A stretch of 62,964 nucleotides of DNA, the filler included, from Collodictyon triciliatum (Eukaryota), in assembly GCA_043381765.1 (NCBI GenBank). It is 13 parts of 13 records of this genome, joined end to end, with 100 filler letters (N's around TTAATTAATTAA, not from the genome) between each part and the next. Parts side by side here need not be neighbours in the genome. Positions count along the whole stretch, not along the records: positions 56,460 to 61,138 come from JBHJMP010005851.1; 12 more parts are not named here. One strand, 5' to 3'. A program made the position numbers and the translations under genes. Below the pieces are notes generated by a model. The model was not told where the DNA came from, did no database searches, and worked only from the letters and a program-made list of their open reading frames with translations. How positions within the stretch are numbered: position 1 is the first letter of the stretch; every line of letters starts with the position of its first letter. This document shows, one piece after another, positions 8,501 to 61,329 of this stretch.

Positions 8501-8600
8501 NNNNNNNNNNNNNNNNNNNNNNNNNNNNNNNNNNNNNNNNNNNNTTAATTAATTAANNNNNNNNNNNNNNNNNNNNNNNNNNNNNNNNNNNNNNNNNNNN
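8501..8600. other. Artificial scaffold linker (44N-TTAATTAATTAA-44N); identical linkers start at 13296, 18076, 22867, 27657, 32444, 37230, 42014, 46796, 51578, 56360 and 61139
   Basis: Identical 100-nt structure repeated 12 times. The core has stop codons in all six frames, and genes are truncated at these points. Confidence 0.95.
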
Positions 8601-11400
8601 GTGTCTTCTGCTGAGTATCAGTATGACCATATTGGTTGGATTCAGAATACAAGGGTGTCTTTTGCTGAGTATCAGTATGACCATATTGGTTGGATTCAGG
8701 ATTAACGTGTGTCTTTTGCTGTGTATCAGTATGACCATACTTGTCAGATTTGGAATGCACTTGTGTCTTTTGCTGAGTATCAGTATTACCATATTGGTTC
8801 GATTCGGAATGCACTAGTGTCTTTTGTTGGGTATCAGTATGACCATATTGGTTGGATTCTGAAAAAGCTGGCGTCTTCTGCTGGGTATCAGTATGTCCGT
8901 ACTTGTTGGATTCGGAATACACTGATGTTTTTTGTTGGGTATTAGTATGACCATATTTGTTGGATTCAGAATATACTGATGTATTTTGTTGAGTATCAGT
9001 ATGACCATATTTGTGTGATTCGGAATACATCGGTGTCTTTTGCTGGGTATCAGTATGACCATATTGGTTCGATTCAGAATAAACTGGTGTCTTTTGTTGA
9101 GTATCAGTTAGTCCATATTTATTGGATTTGTAATATACCGATGTATTTTGTTGAGTGTCAGTATGACCATATTGGTTGGATTCGGAATTCACTAGTGTCT
9201 TTTGCTGTGGATCAGTATGACCATATTTATCAGATTCAGAATATACCGGTGTCTTTTGCTGGGTATCAGTATGACCATATTGGTTGGATTTGGAATAAAC
9301 TGGTGTCTTTTGATGGGTATCAGTGTGTCCATATATATTGGAATCAGAATAAACTGATGTCTTTTGCTGGGTATCAGTATGACCATACTGGTTGGATTCG
9401 GAATAAACCAATGTCTTTTGCTGAGTATCAGTTTGTCCATATTTATTGGATTCAGAATTAACGTGTGTCTTTTGCTGGGTATCAGTATGACCATACTTGT
9501 TGGATTCAGAATTAACGTGTGTCTTTTGCTGGGTATCAGTATGACCATATTTGTTGGATTCGGAATAAACTTGTGTCTTTTGCCGGGTATCAGTATGACC
9601 ATACTGGTTGGATTCGGAATGCATTGGTGTCTTTTGCTGTGTATCAGTATGGCCAAATTGGTTAGATTCGGAATAAACTGGTGTCTTTTGTTGGGTGTCA
9701 GTATGACCATACTTGTTGGATTCAGAATATGCCGGTGTCTTTTGATGGGTATCAGTGTGTCCATACTTGATGGATTCGGAATAAACCAGTGTCTTTTGCT
9801 GTGTATCAGTATGACCATATTGGTTGGATTTGGAATGCACTGGTGTCTTTTGTTGAGTATCAGTATTGCCATACTGGTTGGATTCGGAATGCACCGGTGT
9901 CTTATGCTGGGTATCAGTATGACCATATTGGTTGGATTCAGAATGCGCTGATGTCTTTTGCTGGGTATCAGTATGTCCATATTTATCAGATTCGGAATAC
10001 ACCGAGGTCTTTTGCTGGGTATTAGTATGTCCATATTGGTTGGATTCGGAATACACTGGTGTCTTTTGCTGTGTATAAGTATTACCATATTGGTTGGATT
10101 CGGAATAAACTGGTGTTTTTTGTTGGGTGTCAGTATGACCATATTTGTTGGATTCTGAATGCACTTGTGTCTTTTGTTGAGTGTCAGTGTATCCATACTT
10201 GTTGGATTCTGAATAAACCGGTGTCTTTTGTTGAGTATCAGTATTGCCATACTTGTTAGATTCGGAATGCACTGATGTCCTTTGCTGGGTATCAGTATGA
10301 CCGTACTGGTTGGATTCGGAATGCATTGGTGTCTTTTGCTGTGTATCAGTATTACCATACTTGTTGGATTCGGAATACACTGATGTTTTTTGTTGGGTAT
10401 CAGTATGTCCATATTGGTTGGATTCGGAATGCACTGATGTCCTTTGTTGAGTATCAGTATGGCCAAATTGGTTGGATTCGGAATTCACTAGTGTCTTTTG
10501 TTGGGTGTCAGTATGACCATATTTGTTGGATTCTGAATGCACTTGTGTCTTTTGTTGAGTGTCAGTGTATCCATACTTGTTGGATTCTGAATGCACTTGT
10601 GTCTTTTGTTGGGTATCAGTATTACCATATTGGTTGGATTTGGAATATACTGATGTATTTTGTTGAGTATCAGTATGACCATATTTGTGTGATTCGGAAT
10701 ACATCGGTGTCTTTTGTTGGGTATCAGTATGACCATATTTGTGTGATTCGGAATACATCGGTGTCTTTTGCTGTGTATCAGTATGACCATATTGGTTGGA
10801 TTTGGAATGCACTGGTGTCTTTTGCTGTGTATCAGTGTGTCCATATTGGTTGGATTCGGAATAAACTGGTGTCTTTTGCTGGGTCTCAGTGTGTCCATAG
10901 TGGTTGGATTCGGAATGCACTGGTGTCTTCTGCTGAGTATCAGTATGGCCATATTGGTTGGATTCGGAATGCACTGGTGTCTTTTGTTGAGTATCAGTGT
11001 GTCCATATTGGTTGGATTCGGAATATACTGGTGTCTTTTGCTGGGTATCAGTATTACCATATTTGTTGGATTCAGAATACACTGGTGTCTTCTGCTGGGT
11101 ATCAGTATGACCATACTGGTTGGATTCGGAATGCACTGGTGTCTTTTGTTGGGTGTCAGTATGTCCAAATTGGTTGGATTCGGAATAAACTGGTGTCTGT
11201 TGTTGAGTATCAGTGTATCCATAATGGTTCGATTCGGAATAAACCGGTGTCTTTTGTTGGGTATCAGTTTGTCCATATTGGTTCGATTCGGAATAAACTG
11301 GTGTCTTTTGTTGGGTATCAGTATGGCCATATTGGTTGGATTCGGAATAAACGGGTGTCTTTTGCTGGGTATCAGTATGTCCGTGCTTGTTAGATTCGGA
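8601..11400 (-). repeat. 54-bp coding tandem repeat, about 52 units (consensus YGHTDTQQKTPVYSESNQ)
   Basis: On +, the unit approximates gtatcagtatgaccatattggttggattcggaatacactggtgtcttttgctgg. Only one minus-strand frame stays open across the whole array. Confidence 0.95.
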
Positions 11401-12765
11401 ATATATAGCTGTATTTTTCACGGTATCAGCCATATCATACTTGGTTGACTCTGGGAACACTGATGCCTTCTGTTTGTTTTCAGTATGTCTATGTTTAATA
11501 GATTTCGAATTTTTAATATTTTTTATGTGTGTCTGTTACCTGGTAATGATTTCCTTCCCTGGGGAGATGACCTATTTTATTCGACGACTGGTTATTGATT
11601 GTTTCGTCCGAACTGATGTGTATTCCACTTTGTTGGCTATTATGTCTGGGAATTCGATTTAAATCGGTGTTGGTTGTAATTGGAAAGGTCATTCCTTCAC
11701 CTTTTTGATTCCTCTCAACAAGAGGCATCTTGCTACGGCCTGTAATAAATACTGTATTCAGAATTCTGTTCTGCAATACCATTGGAAATGTGCAAATTCT
11801 ATTTTTATTGTTTTATTCTTAAGTTAACTTACCTTTATGAGAGAGTTTCTTTTGGTTATTGCCTTGCACGAATGTATGTTTGTGATTTTCCATCATTTTA
11901 ATTCTATCTGGCGTGTTATTGAAGCAATCGATCCCTTTGTCTACTGAGGGATCATTAATATCTCTCAATTTTGCTTCTTCATTATTATAATGAAGCTCAT
12001 TTATTTCATCCGCAATGCTATCCTCGGTTATATCTTTCTACATGAAATGTGACATATGAGTATCAACATAAATACTTATTTTGATACTGAAATTAACTTT
12101 AATGAAAAAATGGGAGTAAGCTTCAACTTTAAATTATTTCTTTGTTATTACATATTCTTTGTTAGTGGAGACACAAGGGGATATGTTGCCATCAAAGGTT
12201 TCATCTTTCACCATACTAACACCGTTCTTCTCATCTATTATTGTTAAGGAAAAAAATTGGATGATTCTTGACAACTCTATCTGCTCATTTATAAGGAATG
12301 TAGAAGATTAAAAAAAACATATTTTTCATCGTAGTTCTATTATAAGTTACCTTGAAAAAGTTCATAAGTTGCTGCATGGTTTTGATGGGATATGTGTTGG
12401 AAACATATAATTGACGTTTTATCGTGCAATTGGCTGGCATAGCAATCTAGGTGGCTGGATACATTCGAAAGGATTGCGTACCTTCCGTAAGATAACTTTG
12501 GGTGAATTCCATCTTGACACTCATACCATTCGGTCTGATTCTTCCAAATAATAATTCGATTGATGATGCCAAGGTCAGAATTATTTGCGGGTGTCAAGAT
12601 TAGGGTGATATTTTTATCCATATGGATCGTGATCAACCCAATAGTTTTAAGTGATTCATGGCAAATCCATTCAAGGTCAGTATTGGAGGGCGGATGACAG
12701 GCCACCCAACTCATGAACATAGTGAAAATTACTCCAAATCGGAATGTATGCAGTGAAGGCCTCAT
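8601..12765 (-). CDS. Putative secreted protein: signal peptide, Cys-containing N-terminal domain, then a long 18-aa tandem-repeat region (3' truncated at linker)
   Basis: Exon 1 MRPSLHTFRFGVIFTMFMSWVAC...YELFQ (12765 to about 12351). It splices in phase through exons at about 12235-12153, 12037-11833 and 11739-11540 into the uninterrupted repeat ORF (11469-8601). Confidence 0.7.
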
Positions 12766-21750: not shown

Positions 21751-21823
21751 GGGGGTGTAGCTCAGATGGTAGAGCGCTCGCTTAGCATGCGAGAGGTAAC
21801 GGGATCGATGCCCGTCACCTCCA
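21751..21823 (+). tRNA. tRNA-Ala (anticodon AGC)
   Basis: GGGGGTGTAGCTCAGATGGTAGAGCGCTCGCTTAGCATGCGAGAGGTAACGGGATCGATGCCCGTCACCTCCA: 73-nt cloverleaf with the G3:U70 identity pair and no intron; a T-rich tract follows. Confidence 0.97.
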
Positions 21824-37050: not shown

Positions 37051-38174
37051 CTGCGCAATGTCCTCTTTACTATTCCTTCATAAGATATAGACGATGTAAG
37101 GCATTTATTGAAAAAGAGAAAGAGAAAGAGAAAAAAGAAACAGAAAAAGTGAAAAAGTGAAAAGAGAAAAGTGAAAAGAGAAAAAAGAGAAAAAAGAGAA
37201 AAAAAAGAGGAAAAAAGAGAAAAAAAGAANNNNNNNNNNNNNNNNNNNNNNNNNNNNNNNNNNNNNNNNNNNNTTAATTAATTAANNNNNNNNNNNNNNN
37301 NNNNNNNNNNNNNNNNNNNNNNNNNNNNNCCATTGCGGAAGGATAAGTTGTGCTGAGCGTGCAAGCATCGTCGCCTTCATGAAAGAAAAGAATCGCGACA
37401 AAAGGCGCTGGCTTGCAAGGAAAACAGACGCGGTAATTGCCACAGATCCACAACGCGTATTTTGGTGTGGCTTATCCTAATAAGGGATTAACTTTGTTGG
37501 GTTTTTTCCCAACCCCAATTGTGTGCTTTGGGAACACACGCGGCAACACTTTGGAGTATCACCAGACGCGACGATTAACCTGTTCTATTGGGCTGTGTGG
37601 CTGGGAACAACGCGGCATTGGCCGTGTCAATTCTTTCCATACTTGAAAACAATGTTCCCGTGCTTTGATTTCTATAGTCCATTTAGATTCAATACTAGCA
37701 CTTTTGGTGCAGGGAATCATTCCCACCACATTATTCCCAAGCACTGGACCAAGAAACAAAATATATGTCCCTGATAATAGGGCAAGCTAATGTGTTTGGT
37801 CTCTTTTCCTAGGTTGTATATAAGAGTTAGCATCCCGTGGAAAATTGAAGAGGGATTCTTAGCTCTTCGGGTGTTGCAGTAATTTGAACCCAAACACCCT
37901 CATCATGTTGAATTCTCATCATGTGATGTAAAGGCGTCGCGGTATCATGACACAAGTAGTTTTTCTTGCAATCAGATGGCGAGATGATCCTATTCGTTTA
38001 TGTTCAAAACTGGACCAACCCAATTTTTTCTATACTTTCTTGGTTGATATAATCGATATGACATACTACTTCGTAAGGTGCATGCCTCTTGAGCTATTGG
38101 TATTTACCTTTGCCTCTGCATGAAACTTGCACCCTAGTAGACCGTTTTTTCTAACACAAAACGACAATAGTTTG

Positions 38175-40490
38175 ATGAATCAATTGAAACCTGGTCATGG
38201 GAATAAATATGTAGAGGATTTATACCCTCAAGATACACGAACAAGTTCTTCGTCTTTCCTTTATCCTCACACATGGATAAAGGAAGGGGAGCACGAGAAG
38301 GACCAATACGGCCGTGCCTTTGTCCCTCCGACTCGTCAGGAACGTCATCTCAACGATGAAATTCCCGATTTGTTGGACATTAAAGGCCCTGTTCAAAAGC
38401 ATCACCAATATGACCGCCCTTACAGCAAGCTGCACCACGATGCTCGTCATACTAAATGTGAGCAAGCCAGTTTCATCAAATCCAACACCGCGTGTACTGG
38501 TGTTCAAATGCAAGAGTTTGAGAAGGCGGCTGTTGAATTAAACGACGGTAAAGTGGACCAACCGTCGCATGAAGAGGAAGAAGAGGAAGAAGAAACACTT
38601 CTTCAAGAAGCCTTGAATCTCCTATGGAACGAAAAGGTGTCCATCTTTTTCACAGTTATTGTCCTTATACTAATTCTGCTCCTTCGATATCAAACTTCCT
38701 GGGGTGACCTAGACGACGATGCCTGGTTCACTATATGGACTATCTTTGTCGCCATGGTTGTTCTCGTGAGAGGAATCACCGACCCAGATATCGCCCTCTT
38801 TGGATGCTGTACACTTCTTATGTACCGCGGAATCATCGAACCCTCTCAGGCCTTCAAAGGGCTGGGAAATGATACTGTCATTACGATTGCGCTGATGATT
38901 GTGGTTGCTGGAGGGATTGAAGAGTCTGGTGCTATCGAGTACATGGCCAAGTACTGCATGGGGCGCCCTTGGAACATTTACACATCGCAGTTTCGCTTCA
39001 TGATTGTAAATGGCTTCATTTCTGCCTGGACGAATAACACTCCACAAGTTGCTGTCTTTATTCCTGTGGTAGAAGCCTGGTGCCTAAGATATGGACTTCC
39101 GACATCAAAGTATATGATTCCCTTGAGCTATGCCACCATCCTAGGGGGCCTTATAACCATTATCGGTACGTCGTCCAATCTAGTCGTAAAAGCCCTTGCC
39201 CAATCATATTACCCAAACATGACTATGCCTTTCTTCGAAATTGGAGCGGTTGGTGCCCCACTGACAATTGCTGGGATTATATACGTCTCTATTGCCTCCC
39301 CGTTCCTGCTTCCTAATCGACAGGGAGTCCGGGCAACACTCAACGAGTTTACTCGCGAGTACACCGTTCATGTAATTGTTCGTAGTGGCAGTGACATGGT
39401 AGGCCATTCTATCGAAAAGAACAACTTGAAGCACCTGCCCGCATTATACCTGGTGGACATCGAGAGAAAAAGTGGTGAAATAATCCCTGCTCCCTCTGGT
39501 GATGTAATTATCGAGGCTGGAGACAAGATTTGCTTCGTCGGTGCTGTGGATGGAGCGCGATACCTATGGAAGAGCAACGACTTTGTTCCATCTTTTGATG
39601 GGACGATTGGAATCAGCGGCAATAGAGTCTTGGTTGAAGCCGTGGTAAATGTTCGCTCTCGGCTTGTGGGTAAAACGGTGCGGACTTCGCGATTTCGAAC
39701 CGAGTATGGCGCTGCCATTCTCTCTGTGCATCGAGGGGGAGAAAGATTGAAAGGAAGGGTTGGTGACATTACCTTAAAGCATGGGGATACTCTGCTACTG
39801 GAAGCCCCAACAACGTTTGCAGAAGAGTATCGCCACGACCCAACTTTCGCCCTTGTGGCCGAAGTTGTTCACAGCTACACTACTTCTGGGGCGAGATGGA
39901 AGATGCAGGCTTCCTTCGTGCTGTTACTTACCCTGGTAACTCTGAATGCTCAAAGTTCTGTCACCATTCCTCTATCCAACACTGCTCTCGCGTGTGTCTA
40001 TGCATATTTCATTCTAGGTATCTCGAATCCAACGAGCGCGAAGAAGACTGTGCCAGACTCGACCTTGCTCACTATCGCTGGAGGTGATGGCATAGCTACT
40101 GCAATGACGCAGACAGGGATTGCAAACAAACTGGCTGTCAACCTGGTGAATGGATTCGGGGGTCTTGGAGTTGTAGGGCCTCTCTACGGCATCTACATCG
40201 GCACTGTGATTCTGACAGCTCTTCTATCCAATAATGCCTCTGCGACATTGATGTTTGCTGTTGCGGCAGAAGCATCTTCGTTTACAGGTATACACGCAAA
40301 AGCTTTCATGTATATCCTCGCCCTCGCTGCCTCAGCAGACTTCTCCACTCCTATCGGGTACCAAACCAATCTGATGGTTGCTGGGCCTGGCGGCTACAAG
40401 TTCCTCGACTACACAAAGATTGGACTCCCTCTGCAAGTTGTTTGCTGCCTTGTGTCGGTCCCTCTTTCCTACCATTTCTTTGGGCAGTAG
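38175..40490 (+). CDS. SLC13/DASS-family transporter with TrkA-C domains (SLT/SAC1-like Na+/sulfate symporter), intronless
   Basis: Single ORF: SAWTNNTPQVAVFIP, PLSYATILGGLITIIGTSSNLVV, two TrkA-C-like segments (LVGKTVRTSRFRTEYGAAILSVHRGGE), LSNNA, ADFSTPIGYQTNLMVAGPGGYKFLDY. Confidence 0.93.
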   Translation: MNQLKPGHGNKYVEDLYPQDTRTSSSSFLYPHTWIKEGEHEKDQYGRAFVPPTRQERHLNDEIPDLLDIKGPVQKHHQYDRPYSKLHHDARHTKCEQASFIKSNTACTGVQMQEFEKAAVELNDGKVDQPSHEEEEEEEETLLQEALNLLWNEKVSIFFTVIVLILILLLRYQTSWGDLDDDAWFTIWTIFVAMVVLVRGITDPDIALFGCCTLLMYRGIIEPSQAFKGLGNDTVITIALMIVVAGGIEESGAIEYMAKYCMGRPWNIYTSQFRFMIVNGFISAWTNNTPQVAVFIPVVEAWCLRYGLPTSKYMIPLSYATILGGLITIIGTSSNLVVKALAQSYYPNMTMPFFEIGAVGAPLTIAGIIYVSIASPFLLPNRQGVRATLNEFTREYTVHVIVRSGSDMVGHSIEKNNLKHLPALYLVDIERKSGEIIPAPSGDVIIEAGDKICFVGAVDGARYLWKSNDFVPSFDGTIGISGNRVLVEAVVNVRSRLVGKTVRTSRFRTEYGAAILSVHRGGERLKGRVGDITLKHGDTLLLEAPTTFAEEYRHDPTFALVAEVVHSYTTSGARWKMQASFVLLLTLVTLNAQSSVTIPLSNTALACVYAYFILGISNPTSAKKTVPDSTLLTIAGGDGIATAMTQTGIANKLAVNLVNGFGGLGVVGPLYGIYIGTVILTALLSNNASATLMFAVAAEASSFTGIHAKAFMYILALAASADFSTPIGYQTNLMVAGPGGYKFLDYTKIGLPLQVVCCLVSVPLSYHFFGQ

Positions 40491-54593: not shown

Positions 54594-56849
54594 CTTTGAA
54601 TCGAGTAAAGGGAAAAAATAATTGATTATTATTTGTTGGTGTTTCCAAATTTGATATATATTAAAGTTACTCATTCAACAGTAAAATTTATTTTATTCTC
54701 CCAACAAATCAAAAGCAATATTCTTACCGATTCCACTGATGCTTTTGTTGCAGATGCTATGCAATCCGATCAGCTGTTCACTGTAATATTTTTAATCTTA
54801 GATATAATTAGTCAAAGAAATCAAATTTGGAGTTGAAAAGAGTAAAATCATAAAAAAAAAAAATATTGCGATAGTAAATATCAACAACAGTAAATAGATT
54901 ACCCGCTTTTTGACCATGCAGAATGAATCCTCCTCTTACTACAGCGATACATTACTCGAGTGAACAATTAATGTTTCTGGTGAGATCAATATGATTTATT
55001 TTAAAAGAATAGCCTTTCATGTTATGAAGCTGATATAAAAAAACTCTGATTCATGCGATAGGGACAAGTTGAGGTTAAAAATTTTTTTATTACTGACCAT
55101 ACGCCAAATGAACAGTATCAGTCTCAGGGGTGCGGTCATTAAAGATGAACTTTTCCTCTCTTTTTGGCCACAGCTCAATCATTTTCTCTACCCTATAGGC
55201 AATATGGATCATTTGGGTATGGTTTACACATACATAGATAAAAATAAAAGCAAATATCGAGATATATTTTGATACGGCCCGTGATCGATTAAAGTCAACA
55301 ATTATAGTAAATAGAATTTCAACAATAATTGATCATTAGCCCTTATTCGTCAGCAATCCCCCAGGCGCAATAAATTATGAGGAGCTTAGTGTGTCATCCT
55401 GATAGTAAGCTTCCAGGCATGTTATATTAACGGCAGTATCACTTAATGGAAAAATAAAAATTAAGAGGGAAAATAATTAAAATATATAGATGAGAAATTA
55501 AAAAAAAAACTGCCAATATAAGAAACCCGTGAAAAGGCTGAAGTTAGAACCAAATAACCAACAGAGCAAAACAACCAAACTGAAAGCAACGATCTAACTA
55601 GAAGAGATATACTTAAAGCCTGCATCTGTGGAAAAGACCAGCGAAGTGAGCATGATGTGGGCAGCAGAGCAACAAAAGACCCAGTCATTGTCACACCCTT
55701 GGAAAGTGTCTTAAACTGCACGAGATGGGATCAGAGTCTATTATATACTATGAATGATAGGATAACACATAGGCTATAGCATTGTTGATAAGAAATATAA
55801 AAAAAATAGAACGATTGGTGGTTCAGACAACGTAGATGCGTGACCAACAATCCTCTGCAACAGGATGCTCCGTGGCTATAATAGTCCTACCCCCACTTTT
55901 TTTTCCTTTATTCGGTTCAAAGTAGTCCTAGCCTCACTTGACTTGCGAATACGTATAATAATAAGGGGCCCTAACAAACTAGTACATGACATTAGAAAAG
56001 TTGAGTTTAGAGTTATTTAGATATGTAAATGAATTTTCTGTATAGTCTCGAGCTTGGGTTGGTAAGTAACAACATAACCCAGGGATTATACAAGGCAATA
56101 ACAAAGCCCATCATATCCACTTTTGCTGAAAGCAATCATTCGCTGCCCTTGTTTGTATCTTTAATAATTGCTATCATGTACTAGCGTTGGATAGACTACT
56201 CCACTCTCGATCAAGTCTTTCGGTTTTCTGACAAAGGTAAAAGACCAGCTTAGGTTACACATTTTTGTTTGTTTGTTTGTTTGTTTGTTTGTTTGTTTGT
56301 TTGTTTGTTTGTTTGTTTGTTTGTTTGTTTGTTTGTTTGTTTGTTTGTTTGTTTGTTTGNNNNNNNNNNNNNNNNNNNNNNNNNNNNNNNNNNNNNNNNN
56401 NNNTTAATTAATTAANNNNNNNNNNNNNNNNNNNNNNNNNNNNNNNNNNNNNNNNNNNNTATGTTTTTATGTTTTTATGTTTTTATGTTTTTATGTTTTT
56501 ATGTTTTTATGTTTTTATGTTTTTATGTTTTTATGTTTTTATGTTTTTATGTTTTTTAATTGAGATACGATCGAAAAGCACGCAATGTGACACGCTGATC
56601 TTGCGATGATCCTTGCACGAAGCGACGCTGACCACAACAAAACCCTCACGCGAGCACTAAAACCCTGGTGCTATGAAATCCACATAAGAAAATTTTGGCC
56701 TAACATCGCACGCGCCGAGCGACAGAATGGCATTCCATCTGTATCCATTTGGATGAAGTCGAGGGAAGAAGGAGCCTCATTCTGAATCTGGAGCAGCCAT
56801 ATATATTCGCGGTTTTTGGCTGGGTGCAAGCACGCAACACGAAACATTG

Positions 56850-56985
56850 TTATGAGTAAAAATTCCTTCGAGGGGGAATATACTATCGAAAGATTGGTAA
56901 ACCTGGTGCGCTAGAATCCAAGGTCTCACCACTTTTTTCACAAAGGTTGTGTAGTGGTGAAGACTGCCAGGAAAGACCCAACAGC
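56850..56985 (-). ncRNA. Candidate Fanzor omegaRNA scaffold
   Basis: Directly 3' of the Fanzor ORF. Nested stems on +: gtctcaccact(56923-33)/agtggtgaagac(56953-64), inner cacaa/ttgtg, outer cctgg(56902-06)/ccagg(56967-71). A second stem ctttcga/tcgaagg reads on the minus strand. Confidence 0.55.
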
Positions 56986-58892
56986 CTATTTTTTTTTAGA
57001 GAAAGGTGTATGCATTTTTTGAAGGATTGAAAGAACTTTCTTGGGTATTTTTTTAGCGCTGTTAAAGTCCCTTGTCAAGAATACACTTTGTTTGCTTTCT
57101 GAGCGATTACATTCTTTACATGTGTGACATATATACACCTTTTTTGTATTTCCTTTCAATTCCATATTTTCCAGTTCTTTTTCGCAGTTACAACACACCT
57201 TGGAGGTTCTAAATTCATCTACGCTAACTGTTTCAAAACATTTGGATAGTATTTTTCGTAATCCTTTTCTGATTGTTGGCATAAAATATTTCATCTGAGA
57301 GTTTCTGCTCAAGTTTCCATTCGCCAATACAACATCCTTGCCAAATGTCTTTTCGGTTCAGTCCATAAACAACTGTTCACTTCTTTTTGTATTAACATAC
57401 TTTCTCCATCTCATCTTTCGAAAAGTTACTTGTTCATAAAATCTGGAAAACCCTATCTGGTATCTTGATTTCATAGATACATATTTTCTAAACTTTTCAT
57501 AATCGACCATGCATGAATTATGTTTGCTCAGTCCTGTCTCTAAATCGATTAAAGATAGTCTTGATGTCTCAAACTGCTGATTCTCTTCAAAATTCATGTG
57601 ACAAAAAGAAATAGCACTTTGTAAACCTGTTTCCATGCATATCCCTGAACAATTGTAATTTTTTTCTCGCGCAAGAGTATTTTGTGATTTTTAAGAGGTT
57701 TGCTATCATATCTTCTTTGGTGTGCTGTGTAACGTAATTTCTTGCCTGTCTCATCCACCATGTAAACAAAATAAAACTTACCTGCGTCCACTCCATCTAT
57801 TTTCTTTTGCCGCTAATAAATATAACAGGTCTTCGGAAAGTTCATCAATATAGACATATTGGGTTTTTTTTTTCATTATATCTGAATTTTGAATTTGAAA
57901 TACCTTTCTTTTCAAACAATAATGACACCACCAAGCCGTCTGTTTGTATCATGTATTTAAAATTGTAGTATCTTTGATGAAATACCCTCTTCTTCATTTC
58001 AAAAAAAAAATCATCCCATAGGTTCTCTTCGCATTCTGATATATTCTCGAGTAATAATCTTTTTCCAGTTGTTACTAATAGATCTATCAAAGATGCGGTA
58101 TCTAGAGTAATATGACATGGTATATTGGTAGTTCTTATAGAGATTCGTTGATACTTTTTTGGCTCCAATGTCCTCAAAAATGCGATTCGTGTAAATCAGA
58201 TGTGGAATGTACTTCGGATTGACTTTGGCGTCATATTCGATACCTTTTACAATATCGCTTGGAATGATATGATGCAAATGCAACATAGCCCATTCTTTAT
58301 ATTTTTCCGGTATTTCGAGTTTCTTGGAGATGGCTTTTTTTTAATTTTCGTAACTCTGCCTTTTTAATAGCTTACGTAATATTCTCATCTTTAGGAACTG
58401 TTTGATTTATGTAGCGCAATAACCCCTTTAAAAAATGCTCCTTAATGTTATTATGATAAGCTGTTAACATTTGCTTCGCCAAGTACGGTAATACATGAGA
58501 CAGTCCAACCAACGGAAAGTGTTCTTATCGGGACAAAAGGAATCGAAAGTCATTGAGATAAAAAGTCATCATGTCGATACTTATATCTGGTTTTTTTTAA
58601 ATCTTCCTGGTCTATCTTATGAAACGATTCCCACTGTCTTTAAAGCGTACAAAAAACAAAAAACAAAAAAAAAACATTTGATTGGTTGTTGGGAGTTGTG
58701 ATTTCAATATGTAACATCTTACAAACAGATAAGTGTCGGTAATGTAAAGTTATGACACAATAAAACCGTATCGTTGATTTCGTCATAGTCATCCGGATTC
58801 TTTGCAATCAACTTTAGAGATGTTTACACATTTCGATAGTCTGGTTTTACAGACTTTATATTCTCAGACCCAAGATGTTTTCTTTTCTTCAT
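56986..58892 (-). pseudogene. Degenerate Fanzor1 (eukaryotic TnpB-derived RNA-guided endonuclease), intronless, with multiple frameshifts and stops
   Basis: Fragments in order: MKKRK..TSLKLI..EINDTV..TYLFVRCYIL..YLAKQMLTAYHNNIKEHFLKGLLRYIN..IPCHITLDTASLIDL..MIQTDGLVVSLLF..GVDAGKFYFVYMVD (RuvC-I)..RKMRWRKY..MKYFMPTIRKGLRK..VDEFRTSKVCCNC (RuvC-II, Zn)..CKEC..TRDFNSA (RuvC-III). Confidence 0.88.
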
Positions 58893-58938
58893 CTGAACGT
58901 CTTTGTTTTACGTTTTCCTTTAGAAAACTACCAAGTTT

Positions 58939-58946
58939 TCAATTTT
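58939..58946 (-). promoter_or_regulatory. AAAATTGA motif (Mimiviridae early-promoter consensus) about 46 nt upstream of the Fanzor ATG
   Basis: + strand tcaatttt at 58939-58946. The motif also occurs by chance elsewhere in this AT-rich window. Confidence 0.35.
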
Positions 58947-61329
58947 AATAAAGCTTTAGTCAATTATCCAATTTAAAAAAACTGCGTAAAATCAATTCAG
59001 GTAAAATTAAGCATCTACCGAGACCCTCAAAATATGCACGTTGCGACAAACAAGCACATTAACTTTTTTTTTAGAAGTAATTTGAGACAAAACGCTGAGA
59101 GCCAATTCGGCGAGTTCGAAAGGATGGCCGTATAGAAACTGCGATTGAAAGTCAACATATCGGTCCCAAACAACATGATTACCGCCGCAAGTGTGGATAG
59201 AATGCTTTTTTGAAATGCATGTTTGGTGGCAGGTTTATAGGGGGGATTCTGTCTGGGCCAAGGCAAGGGCTTGTTTGTCATTTTTGAATTTTAATGGGAT
59301 AGTAATATTACATAATAGAAAATAAAATATAAATCAATTACAGGAATAGAATGAAATTATGAAGTATTTTAACCTTATTATATATACTAATTATATTATT
59401 CAGGTTGCTTCTTGGATTTATCAAAGCTCTTGCTTCCGTCAATCCAGATTAAATTCGATGATTGCCTGTGCAATAAATTGCTCTATATATGGGTACACTT
59501 TCGTTGTATTAAAAGTGGTGTGCTTGGAAGGGATAAAACCAAATTCGTCACAACCTTTGCGATGAAATTTAACCATTTACAGGCTGAATGTGACTGAAGA
59601 AAAAAAAGAAAAATAGAAAAAGAAAAAATAAATGAATCAGAGTAACTAATGCTGAGCGCTATAACCATAATTATCTTACTGCCCGTGAGTTGATGGCTTG
59701 AGCTTGAATCATATAAGCCCTTTCTTCAGTAGCCTCTTGGTCTCTTGCTCCCCATGGGTCGGTGGCTTGGGCTCGATTGGTTTTTTATTCCCCATTAATT
59801 TTAGTTTTAGTATAAGTTTTAGTGTTAGTATTAGTATTATTGTTATTATTATTATTGTTATTATTGTTATTATTGTTATTATTGTTATTATTGTTATTAT
59901 TATTATTATTATTCGTTATTATTATTCGTTATTATTATTCGTTATTATTATATGTTATTATTATTGTTATCATTATTCGTTTCAAAGAGCTCGCTCCGTC
60001 TTTTTATTAGCTTGTTGGCTCACGGGTCGGTGGCAGCTGGCGTCATGATCGTTGGTGTGTCTCTGTGCGTAACCTGTGTTGTAAGGGATGTGCTAAAGTG
60101 ACCTTTTCGATCTCTGCGTTGGCTGCGTCGGCCTTCTCGTTTTGCGTACGATTAGTAGGCATCCCACGGGGCAGGGCTGTGGCGTCGGTCTCCTGGTAGG
60201 CGGTCTCGTCCTTCTTGGGATCCCTCTCACCGATCGCTTGCTTGTTTTTTTTTTTTTTCGGCTTCAGAATGTGACGGGTTGAGAGAAGAAAAGAAAGCTA
60301 GTGTGATAATATTATTTTATGAAATATGTGCTCTCTTCTCCCTTGGTGTTTATTATTTCTCAGCAAATGAGACTTTTTCTTAGTTATAGTGTTCTTTCGT
60401 TGTTCCTCTCAACACCATCTCTCTCAGTGCGATCATCACATTTAGTCACATTGCGAGGTATAGAATAGAATAACCTTCGGGAAGGTTGTCTCACAGCCAC
60501 AAACAAACAAACAAACAAACAAACAAATAAATTTATCATACCATATATGAAAATCTATTCTGGATGGTATCATTATCTTACAAAATTTTAACAATTTAAT
60601 CATTCGTAACCGTATATTGCTCTCATTTAATATCTATGAATCCCTTTTTATACACTCAATGTTCATAGACAACGATGTTGCCAGCAACACAGTCGTGGTA
60701 TGGCGTCGGTCTGACACCCCGTGAGATAACTGGCAGGCACCACATCCGCTGAGAACCTTCCTTTTACGTCCACACCGAGGCCGAGGGTGATTAGAATTGC
60801 GCTGGGAGCCAGACAAAAGCTTGGACAAAAACCTACACACGAACCCGCACGGAAAGCGCGTGACCGTCCCAAAACATTACAGCACCATACGAAAGTCCAA
60901 TGCGCTTCTTGCCCGCGATGTGAGGAGGCTGTCCTAGAAATGCACAAACCACGTAGCTGCTTCCTCGTTTGAAACGAAGGGAACGTGCGCAGATGAAAAT
61001 GATAATGACAACATAGTGAAAGAGGATGCATTGTCTTAATAAAAAAAAGAATAAAAGAATAAAAGAATAAAAGAATAAAAGAATAAAAGAATAAAAGAAT
61101 AAAAGAATAAAAGAATAAAAGAATAAAAGAATAAAAGANNNNNNNNNNNNNNNNNNNNNNNNNNNNNNNNNNNNNNNNNNNNTTAATTAATTAANNNNNN
61201 NNNNNNNNNNNNNNNNNNNNNNNNNNNNNNNNNNNNNNAAAAAATTTTTTAAAGAAAAATTTTTTAAAAAAAACCTTTAAAAAAACCGGATTAAAAAAAA
61301 AAAAAAAAAAAAAAAAGTGGAAAGCTCAC

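Follow-up and report, generated by a model that had tools for sequence, protein, structure and literature searches.

The window examined here, a stretch of 62,964 bases from the Collodictyon triciliatum assembly GCA_043381765.1, contains a single copy of a gene for Fanzor1, an RNA-guided nuclease, and this copy is dead. The window is a chain of unplaced scaffold pieces of about 4.7 kb and nearly equal length, joined by 12 six-frame stop linkers (N44-TTAATTAATTAA-N44, at positions 8545, 13340, 18120, 22911, 27701, 32488, 37274, 42058, 46840, 51622, 56404 and 61183). Because the pieces are separate, neighboring ones are uninformative about the Fanzor1 locus and synteny across them is meaningless. 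About 2.1 kb of flank on the piece that carries the gene (Table 1) is microsatellite-rich and holds no long open reading frame (ORF). Microsatellites also stand at the ends of many of the window's pieces.

The initial annotation had described a minus-strand Fanzor remnant that keeps three acidic residues, a CxxC...CxxC zinc finger and a TDG motif and is broken by frameshifts and stops. All of the named motifs are present, and the real extent of the gene proved longer than first drawn: homology continues beyond position 56986 after one more shift in the A/T run 56989-56997, and the old ORF reaches about 56886. A tblastn comparison of the scaffold with two intact proteins from giant-virus loci gave a summed E value of 6e-80 for P0004 (634 aa) and of 3e-76 for P0002 (625 aa, L001:3543-5417), the latter in five colinear segments covering residues 54-602. 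The similarity of the relic to these intact proteins is far above chance. A frameshift-aware alignment to P0004 runs from 58892 to 56889 and comprises 620 aligned positions (267 identical), nine frameshifts and five in-frame stops, and the tblastn segments by themselves need at least seven frame changes. There is no intact ORF that could encode a working nuclease, and the relic is a dead pseudogene of the Fanzor1 family, unable to make protein. The gene's true start codon is the ATG at 58892, as MKKRKHLGSENIKSVKPDYRNV*TSLKLI aligns with MKRKKADKEPPDLKRKPSSYRTVKTSLKSI of P0004, and the K/R-rich N-terminus that begins there may have served in nuclear localization. An insert of extra codons behind the first catalytic segment (Table 1) marks the relic's sub-lineage and sets it apart from the viral ones.

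Table 1. Features of the Fanzor1 relic and its scaffold piece, with the viral elements related to it (positions without a locus prefix count along the window)
Feature	Position	Strand	Remarks
Scaffold piece carrying the relic	56460-61138	.	4.68 kb, linker-bounded, 8-nt microsatellite at either end
Microsatellite (TATGTTTT)12	56460-56556		scaffold start
Decayed near full-length Fanzor1 gene	56886-58892	-	Met1 to C-terminal tail; 7-9 frameshifts, 5 in-frame stops
Frame-shifted tail EKSGETLDS	56913-56939	-	matches EKVGQSVDF of P0004
RDFNSA (TRDFNSA)	57055-57072	-	RuvC-III Asp at 57067-57069, equivalent to SpuFz1 D606
CCCC zinc finger	57118-57195	-	CCNC 57184-57195 + CHTC 57118-57129
DEFRTSK	57199-57219	-	alternative RuvC-II Glu at 57214-57216, equivalent to SpuFz1 E541
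NGNLS	57307-57321	-	Gly at the probable place of the canonical TnpB RuvC-II Glu
In-frame TGA inside FMD*TEKTFGKD	57358-57360	-	R in paralogous fragment P0086
Insert of ~30 extra codons relative to viral proteins	57570-57669	-	between RuvC-I and SLIDLET segment; common to P0003, P0047, P0141
YMVDETGKKLRYT	57726-57764	-	motif listed by the initial annotation; present
GVDAGK	57777-57794	-	RuvC-I Asp at 57786-57788, equivalent to SpuFz1 D383
QTDG motif (TDG)	57935-57946	-	readable in relic
IPCHITLDTAS motif	58091-58123	-	aligns with IPKHIIIDTAS of P0002 and with SpuFz1
NNIKEHF..LRYIN motif	58405-58452	-	family-wide Fanzor1 N-terminal motif; also in SpuFz1 and GtFz1 alignments
In-frame TAA	58824-58826	-	K in P0004
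Start codon and basic N-terminus MKKRKH	58875-58892	-	relatives open MKKKKK or MKRKKADK, likewise K/R-rich
Upstream non-coding stretch of the same repeated family	58893-59300	-	contig depth persists to 59300 (end of compared stretch), runs X1 and X8
Array (TTA)n	59825-59977		within relic scaffold
Array (ACAA)8	60499-60531		within relic scaffold
Microsatellite (AAAAGAAT)12	61045-61138		scaffold end
L001 element	L001:3107-5497		Fanzor-only derivative, 2.4 kb
L007 element	L007:213-5495		5.3 kb; extra cargo: 465-aa Cys-rich repeat protein and 111-aa C2H2 zinc-finger protein
L045 element	L045:2637-5952		compact, 3.3 kb: transposase and Fanzor1

Family assignment and active site

Comparison with solved structures was decisive for the family assignment. 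The 234-aa C-terminal piece of the window copy (P0001, with one TGA read as X) matched the chains of PpFz1 (E = 7.2e-11), SpuFz1 (1.1e-4) and GtFz1 (1e-3). No Fanzor2, TnpB or Cas12 chain was found at E <= 1 with this piece, and the rest of the matches, at E >= 0.12, were unrelated proteins. The intact P0002 matched the same three chains (SpuFz1 6.9e-28, GtFz1 4.7e-26 and PpFz1 1.2e-22), and these were its only matches at E <= 1. Significant similarity to Fanzor1 proteins known from experiment, with none to Fanzor2 or TnpB, supports the assignment of the relic to Fanzor1, and the identity that the initial annotation had proposed was borne out in this respect.

The catalytic residues were mapped by counting positions in the alignment of P0002 with SpuFz1 (8gkh) and by using published residue numbers. 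The metal-binding site of SpuFz1 is made up of D383, N385, E541 and D606 (PMC10432273). By this mapping, an Asp, a Glu and a second Asp of the relic (Table 1) form the catalytic triad, and all three are readable. Fanzors have been described as carrying Gly or Pro at the position of the canonical RuvC-II Glu and an alternative Glu further on (PMC10530073). The same rearranged site is found here: the aligned counterpart of NGNLS is GDWS in SpuFz1 and GNWS in the viral relatives, and the Glu of DEFRTS aligns with E541. The Gly of NGNLS would then probably occupy the column of the canonical TnpB Glu. The relic also conforms to the motif given for the TnpB/Fanzor superfamily, D-X(125,275)-[TS][TS]-X-X-[C4 zinc finger]-X(5,50)-RD (Bao and Jurka 2013, PMC3627910), with about 193 codons from the Asp to TS, the finger CCNC...CHTC, and about 15 codons from the last Cys to RD.

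Viral relatives and the repeat family

A scan of IMG/VR with a 123-aa C-terminal frame of the relic returned 13 stretches, all 13 of which encode relatives on giant-virus contigs from metagenome-assembled genomes (MAGs) or uncultivated virus genomes (UViGs), at 38-52% identity. The closest full-length relative is P0004, at 48% identity, and copies of P0004 are found on four IMG/VR viral contigs (88% on one of 254 kb; 80% on each of those of 57, 173 and 82 kb). An exhaustive HMMER search of 1.84 billion representatives gave 1543 relatives at E <= 1e-3, 530 at E <= 1e-10 and 12 at E <= 1e-30. For a tree of the C-terminal region, 138 of 163 phmmer rows were kept (those with at least 170 profile positions) and the relic was added, which made 139 rows, nine of them viral; the 25 short rows left out include the closest fragments P0003, P0009, P0016 and P0047. 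The relic stands at the base of a 16-row set that includes the viral rows L045 and L046 and has a value of 99 in the Shimodaira-Hasegawa-like approximate likelihood ratio test (SH-aLRT). Apart from the viral rows the tree holds relatives without names, and most rows are metagenomic proteins. As built, the tree indicates nearness to viral sequences and not a direction of transfer. In a protein atlas, the cluster nearest to the 123-aa piece consists of viruses to 92% (Nucleocytoviricota), and the second of eukaryotes to 94% (Mucoromycota). These comparisons support the description of the relic as being of giant-virus type. The initial annotation had used that description with N-terminal motifs in mind; the viral matches uphold it, whereas the motifs turn out to be family-wide, with NNI.EHF..LRYIN present in fungal SpuFz1 and algal GtFz1 as well.

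Relatives nearer than these are all short. The closest public proteins, P0009 (77%, 136 aa), P0086 and P0047 (74 aa), lie on NCBI contigs of 513-629 bp, and both P0009 and P0086 are frame-broken in their own sequences. A protein word-index search for near relatives found P0009 alone, and the same search among longer proteins found none, which is weak evidence. A metagenome scan produced 117 pattern matches, 31 of them encoding a relative and none closer than 51%. Public protein searches thus gave no sign of an intact close copy. The suggestion made at the outset that an intact family exists elsewhere holds for viruses, and there only at 40-52% identity; one may exist in the source genome too, and the only close public proteins are short and mostly frame-broken.

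The viral loci are cut-and-paste transposons of the Tc1/mariner-IS630 type. Inverted ends are perfect in L001 (30 nt), L007 (29 nt) and L045 (32 nt) and near-perfect in L003, L046 and L047 (93-97% matching over 30-33 nt). The element ends read CACC...GGTG and are flanked by TA. Of the 27 loci examined at the right end, 24 carry TA after GGTG; L003 has TC there, and L014 and L049 are without a recognizable end. Inside the ends, on the strand opposite to Fanzor1, is a transposase of 337-346 aa with DDE_3 (Pfam, 5.8e-16) and HTH_28 domains. The DDE_3 transposase is detectable in 22 of 49 related loci, and the elements vary from cargo-bearing to Fanzor-only forms (Table 1), with L003 retaining a transposase stub. 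The viral relatives derive from freshwater metagenomes. Small K/E-rich ORFs were noticed before the Fanzor1 start at L001:3160-3540 (98 aa) and L045:3740-3949 (69 aa), and they recur among related loci, in seven tblastn rows for the L001 type and four for the L045 type.

Conservation at the nucleotide level extends past the Fanzor1 stop codon of the viral elements, for about 105 nt in loci of the L001 group and for about 43 nt in those of the L045 group, and stops abruptly at the element end. RNAalifold, applied to 14 distinct viral 3' ends (alignment A1), predicted 34 pairs, four of them with compensatory changes. The structures noticed lie in columns 100-172 and about 203-221 of A1. A predicted stem lies over the last Fanzor1 codons, and its column pair 111/138 is CG in six sequences, AU in five, GU in one and UA in one. 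An omega-RNA at the right end of the element was demonstrated experimentally for SpuFz1 and GtFz1 (PMC10432273). The conserved 3' tail of the viral elements fits a presumed omega-RNA scaffold, which falls short of proof. Two further hairpins were observed in this region: an invariant one across the stop codon, and, by eye, a short one inside the right end that pairs despite differing sequences in L004, L002, L005 and L012.

Public contigs were compared with the window over 56700-59300, chiefly in two sequencing runs from one study (X1 and X8, of organisms A and B) whose type, RNA or DNA, is uncertain. X1 and X8 yielded 364 and 438 contigs, respectively, at 80-99+% likeness to this stretch, of which 24 and 35 were at 99% or more and 121 and 127 under 90%. 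Each listed site is covered by 7-21 different contigs in these runs, and the cover extends from about 56900 to at least 59300, so that about 400 nt upstream of the ATG also form part of the repeat. The right limit is ragged, with cover starting at about 56897-56950 and loose ends at 56897, 56929 and 56949. This comparison showed that the relic stretch belongs to a multi-copy repeat family. At 58743 and 58749, a base present in the window is absent from most X1 and X8 contigs; therefore at least that frameshift is private to the window copy or shared by a minority of copies only. Pieces of the stretch also turn up in two freshwater metagenomes (X2 and X3), among them two 151-nt contigs with 0 and 1 differences, which give a weak hint that the source organism lives in fresh water.

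In our judgment, the window very probably holds a dead Fanzor1 copy from a multi-copy family of a probably freshwater eukaryote, and the closest intact kin of this copy are in Tc1/mariner-IS630-type transposons of freshwater giant viruses. Judging from the viral relatives, the ancestral element would have consisted of an inverted end, a DDE_3 transposase on the opposite strand, Fanzor1, a 3' non-coding tail and the other inverted end, all flanked by TA. The window lineage would once have been on such a mariner-type element, as its relatives at 40-52% identity suggest, and the window copy carries the nuclease gene alone, its frame repeatedly lost. By extension from the work on SpuFz1, GtFz1 and ApmFz2, a live protein would have worked with an omega-RNA that it bound and that came from the 3' end of the element carrying it. 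From the same published work, it would have made double-strand cuts in matching DNA, dependent on a target-adjacent motif (TAM), through one RuvC site, made up of Asp, relocated Glu and Asp, with support from the CCCC finger. By analogy with TnpB, this nuclease activity presumably aids the persistence or homing of the element.

Competing explanations

A number of observations weigh against this reading. The Pfam family PF07282 (Cas12f1-like TNB) scored below threshold for the relic (E = 0.0015, 19.1 bits against a cut-off of 26.3) and likewise for the intact P0002 (E = 0.015), and a search of NCBIfam gave no relevant match, TnpB included. The runs X1 and X8 hold only 5-11% of the words of the stretch, so their contigs are relatives or other copies and not the window copy itself; no sequencing run holds half or more of these words, and none of the listed holders is on record as RNA. 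Some of the frameshifts at homopolymers could be assembly errors. No transposase remnant was found on the 4.68-kb scaffold by tblastn with the transposases of L007 and L045 (best E values 3.2 and 0.73), in agreement with the initial annotation, whose statement also concerned this scaffold only. Neither element end can be defined in the window copy, and no TA target-site duplication accompanies it. The mariner-type membership of the relic itself is read from its relatives at 40-52% identity. Two further features of the viral elements were sought in the window: tblastn found no remnants of the small upstream ORFs there, and nothing comparable to the viral-type 3' tail could be aligned.

Candidate ends were considered for the window copy and rejected. 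The longest and best inverted pair on the scaffold, 56927-56953 / 59494-59520, matches at 20 of 27 positions and would delimit an element of 2.6 kb, and a second pair was seen at 56933-56951 / 59549-59567. Both arms of the candidate pairs start with CACCACTTTT, which resembles the CACC.TTTT of the viral ends, and the candidate end motif has one match in the window, namely itself. These ends were discarded because the score is at chance level (29 of 30 first-order Markov simulations reach that of the first pair), the right arm falls within the former coding tail, and TA is missing from the flanks.

The alternative that survives best is an endogenous viral element: the relic would be a piece of a giant-virus genome that had integrated, and not a transposon copy spread within the host. 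All of the nearest intact relatives come from giant-virus contigs, the nearest atlas cluster is made up mainly of Nucleocytoviricota, and virus-integrated Fanzor1 elements have been described in Ectocarpus and Hydra contigs (Bao and Jurka, PMC3627910). No giant-virus neighbor genes were found on the 4.68-kb scaffold, which is too short to decide for or against an endogenous virus, as viral genes could lie just beyond it. However, giant-virus loci are gene-dense, whereas the flank of the relic is rich in microsatellites and lacks a long ORF. The 7-21 diverged contigs per listed site in X1 and X8 fit transposon amplification, and identity to the viral copies is just 40-52%. On balance we regard an endogenous virus as improbable.

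A second alternative holds that the gene is intact and that its breaks are artefacts of homopolymer assembly errors, unrecognized introns or a variant genetic code. Four or more of the frame changes do fall in A/T runs of 7-10 nt (58335-58342, 57864-57873, 57659-57665 and 56989-56997), and Fanzor genes can contain introns (PMC10530073). The T-rich slippage tract that had been noted near 58650-58675 is real and corresponds to a plus-strand A10 run at 58665-58674; the interval 58648-58678 was treated as a repeat in contig mapping. Other shifts, at 58751, 58701, 57813 and 57614, lie outside long homopolymers. The five in-frame stops (TAA at 58826, 58619, 58527 and 58374; TGA at 57360) sit inside well-aligned codons, as in FMD*TEKTFGKD, and following tblastn frame B adds a TAG, so that all three stop codons are found in frame. 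Homologous segments abut or overlap at the frame changes and leave no spare sequence for an intron. With stops within aligned codons and no intron room at the frame changes, neither introns nor a variant code rescues the gene, and the stops and the non-homopolymer shifts cannot be assembly errors. Even for the run 57659-57665, a metagenome contig reproduces 57641-57791 with 0 differences. The sister fragments P0009 and P0086 are frame-broken as well. An intact gene is therefore very hard to credit, and the breaks reported in the initial annotation are those of a dead Fanzor1 copy.

Least credible of all, and next to negligible in our estimate, is a Fanzor2 or a contaminating bacterial TnpB in place of Fanzor1: the D...[TS][TS]xxC4...RD motif is common to all TnpB/Fanzor proteins (PMC3627910) and Fanzor2 is also carried by giant viruses, yet the structure matches are to Fanzor1 chains only, NCBIfam has no TnpB match, SpuFz1 and GtFz1 align with the long N-terminal half, NNI.EHF..LRYIN included, and the partner transposase of the relatives is DDE_3 and not an IS607 serine recombinase.

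Elsewhere in the window, three features on other pieces were recorded. An uninterrupted frame of 788 codons at 38124-40490 (plus strand) codes for a CitMHS/TrkA_C (SAC1-like) transporter, and the piece that holds it has a GC content of 42-47%; for the 771-aa transporter, the nearest cluster of the protein atlas is eukaryotic, with Streptophyta commonest, which is the one pointer to the nature of the host. An open frame of 996 codons at 8545-11535 (minus strand), which takes up most of one piece, consists of tandem repeats of about 18 residues (…YSESNQYGHTDTQQKTPV…) and is probably a satellite and not a gene, because other frames are open too. A tRNA gene at 21751-21823 (plus strand) is the only Rfam match above the gathering score in the window.

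Comparison with known systems

Fanzor1 nucleases are candidates for compact eukaryotic genome editing, and their natural role is still unknown. A dead relic offers no enzyme, and more useful material is provided by the intact viral elements, which combine perfect ends and a transposase with Fanzor1 and a conserved 3' tail. A multi-copy eukaryotic family with viral mariner-type kin agrees with the long-held view that Fanzor elements travel from one eukaryote to another by way of large viruses (Bao and Jurka 2013; Saito et al. 2023). It is conceivable, if unlikely, that the relic's lineage moved between freshwater giant viruses and a eukaryotic host and that intact active copies may persist in the host or in the viruses. 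If true, this would provide a natural virus-host pair in which to study the role of an RNA-guided nuclease in a cut-and-paste (DDE) transposon.

Giant viruses, mariner-type elements and eukaryotic genomes have been known as carriers of Fanzor1 since 2013 (PMC3627910), and biochemical work on it has been published since 2023. Bao and Jurka described Mariner/Fanzor1 elements such as PGv-1 of Phaeocystis globosa virus 12T, the PUl elements and HMa-1, and also Fanzor-only copies with TA duplications (PMC3627910). The viral relatives studied here are like these elements in combining Fanzor1, a Tc1/mariner-IS630 DDE transposase and TA-flanked inverted ends, and differ in coming from freshwater metagenomes. 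The window copy differs from the PGv-1 type in being without ends, TA duplication and transposase. The relic is presumably the nuclease gene of a mariner-type Fanzor1 lineage and is likened to PGv-1 by description and not by sequence.

SpuFz1 of Spizellomyces punctatus, carried on Spu-1 (PDB 8GKH; Saito et al. 2023, PMC10432273), belongs to the same protein family, and its D383, E541 and D606 and its CCCC finger are conserved in the relic. The match of SpuFz1 to P0002 (6.9e-28) spans two stretches, and that to the window piece is at 1.1e-4. Spu-1 elements are Fanzor-only, measure about 2 kb, have inverted repeats of 30 nt and occur in multiple copies, and their SpuFz1 copies, which are intact, share about 82% identity (PMC10432273), whereas the relic is dead and without detectable inverted repeats. 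PpFz1 of Parasitella parasitica (PDB 9CF0) is the best solved match of the relic (7.2e-11, over FRKM...DEFRTS...C..CE) and is reported together with GtFz1 of Guillardia theta (9CER; PMC11423790). At that level the alignment is limited to the RuvC-II and zinc-finger region, and both proteins are much longer. Fanzor2 (mimivirus ApmFz2) and the TnpB proteins of IS607 and IS200-605 share the RuvC and zinc-finger core motif and an omega-RNA-guided mechanism, and the relocated RuvC-II Glu is also described for Fanzor2 and TnpB2 (PMC10530073). They differ in that their solved chains have no detectable match here and in that the partner transposase of the relatives is a DDE enzyme, not a serine recombinase or HUH enzyme. 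Set beside these systems, the relic is genuine yet fairly ordinary, a fossil of a known kind. The slightly new aspect is that a decayed lineage with many copies, marked by an insert of about 30 codons, occurs in a eukaryote-like assembly.

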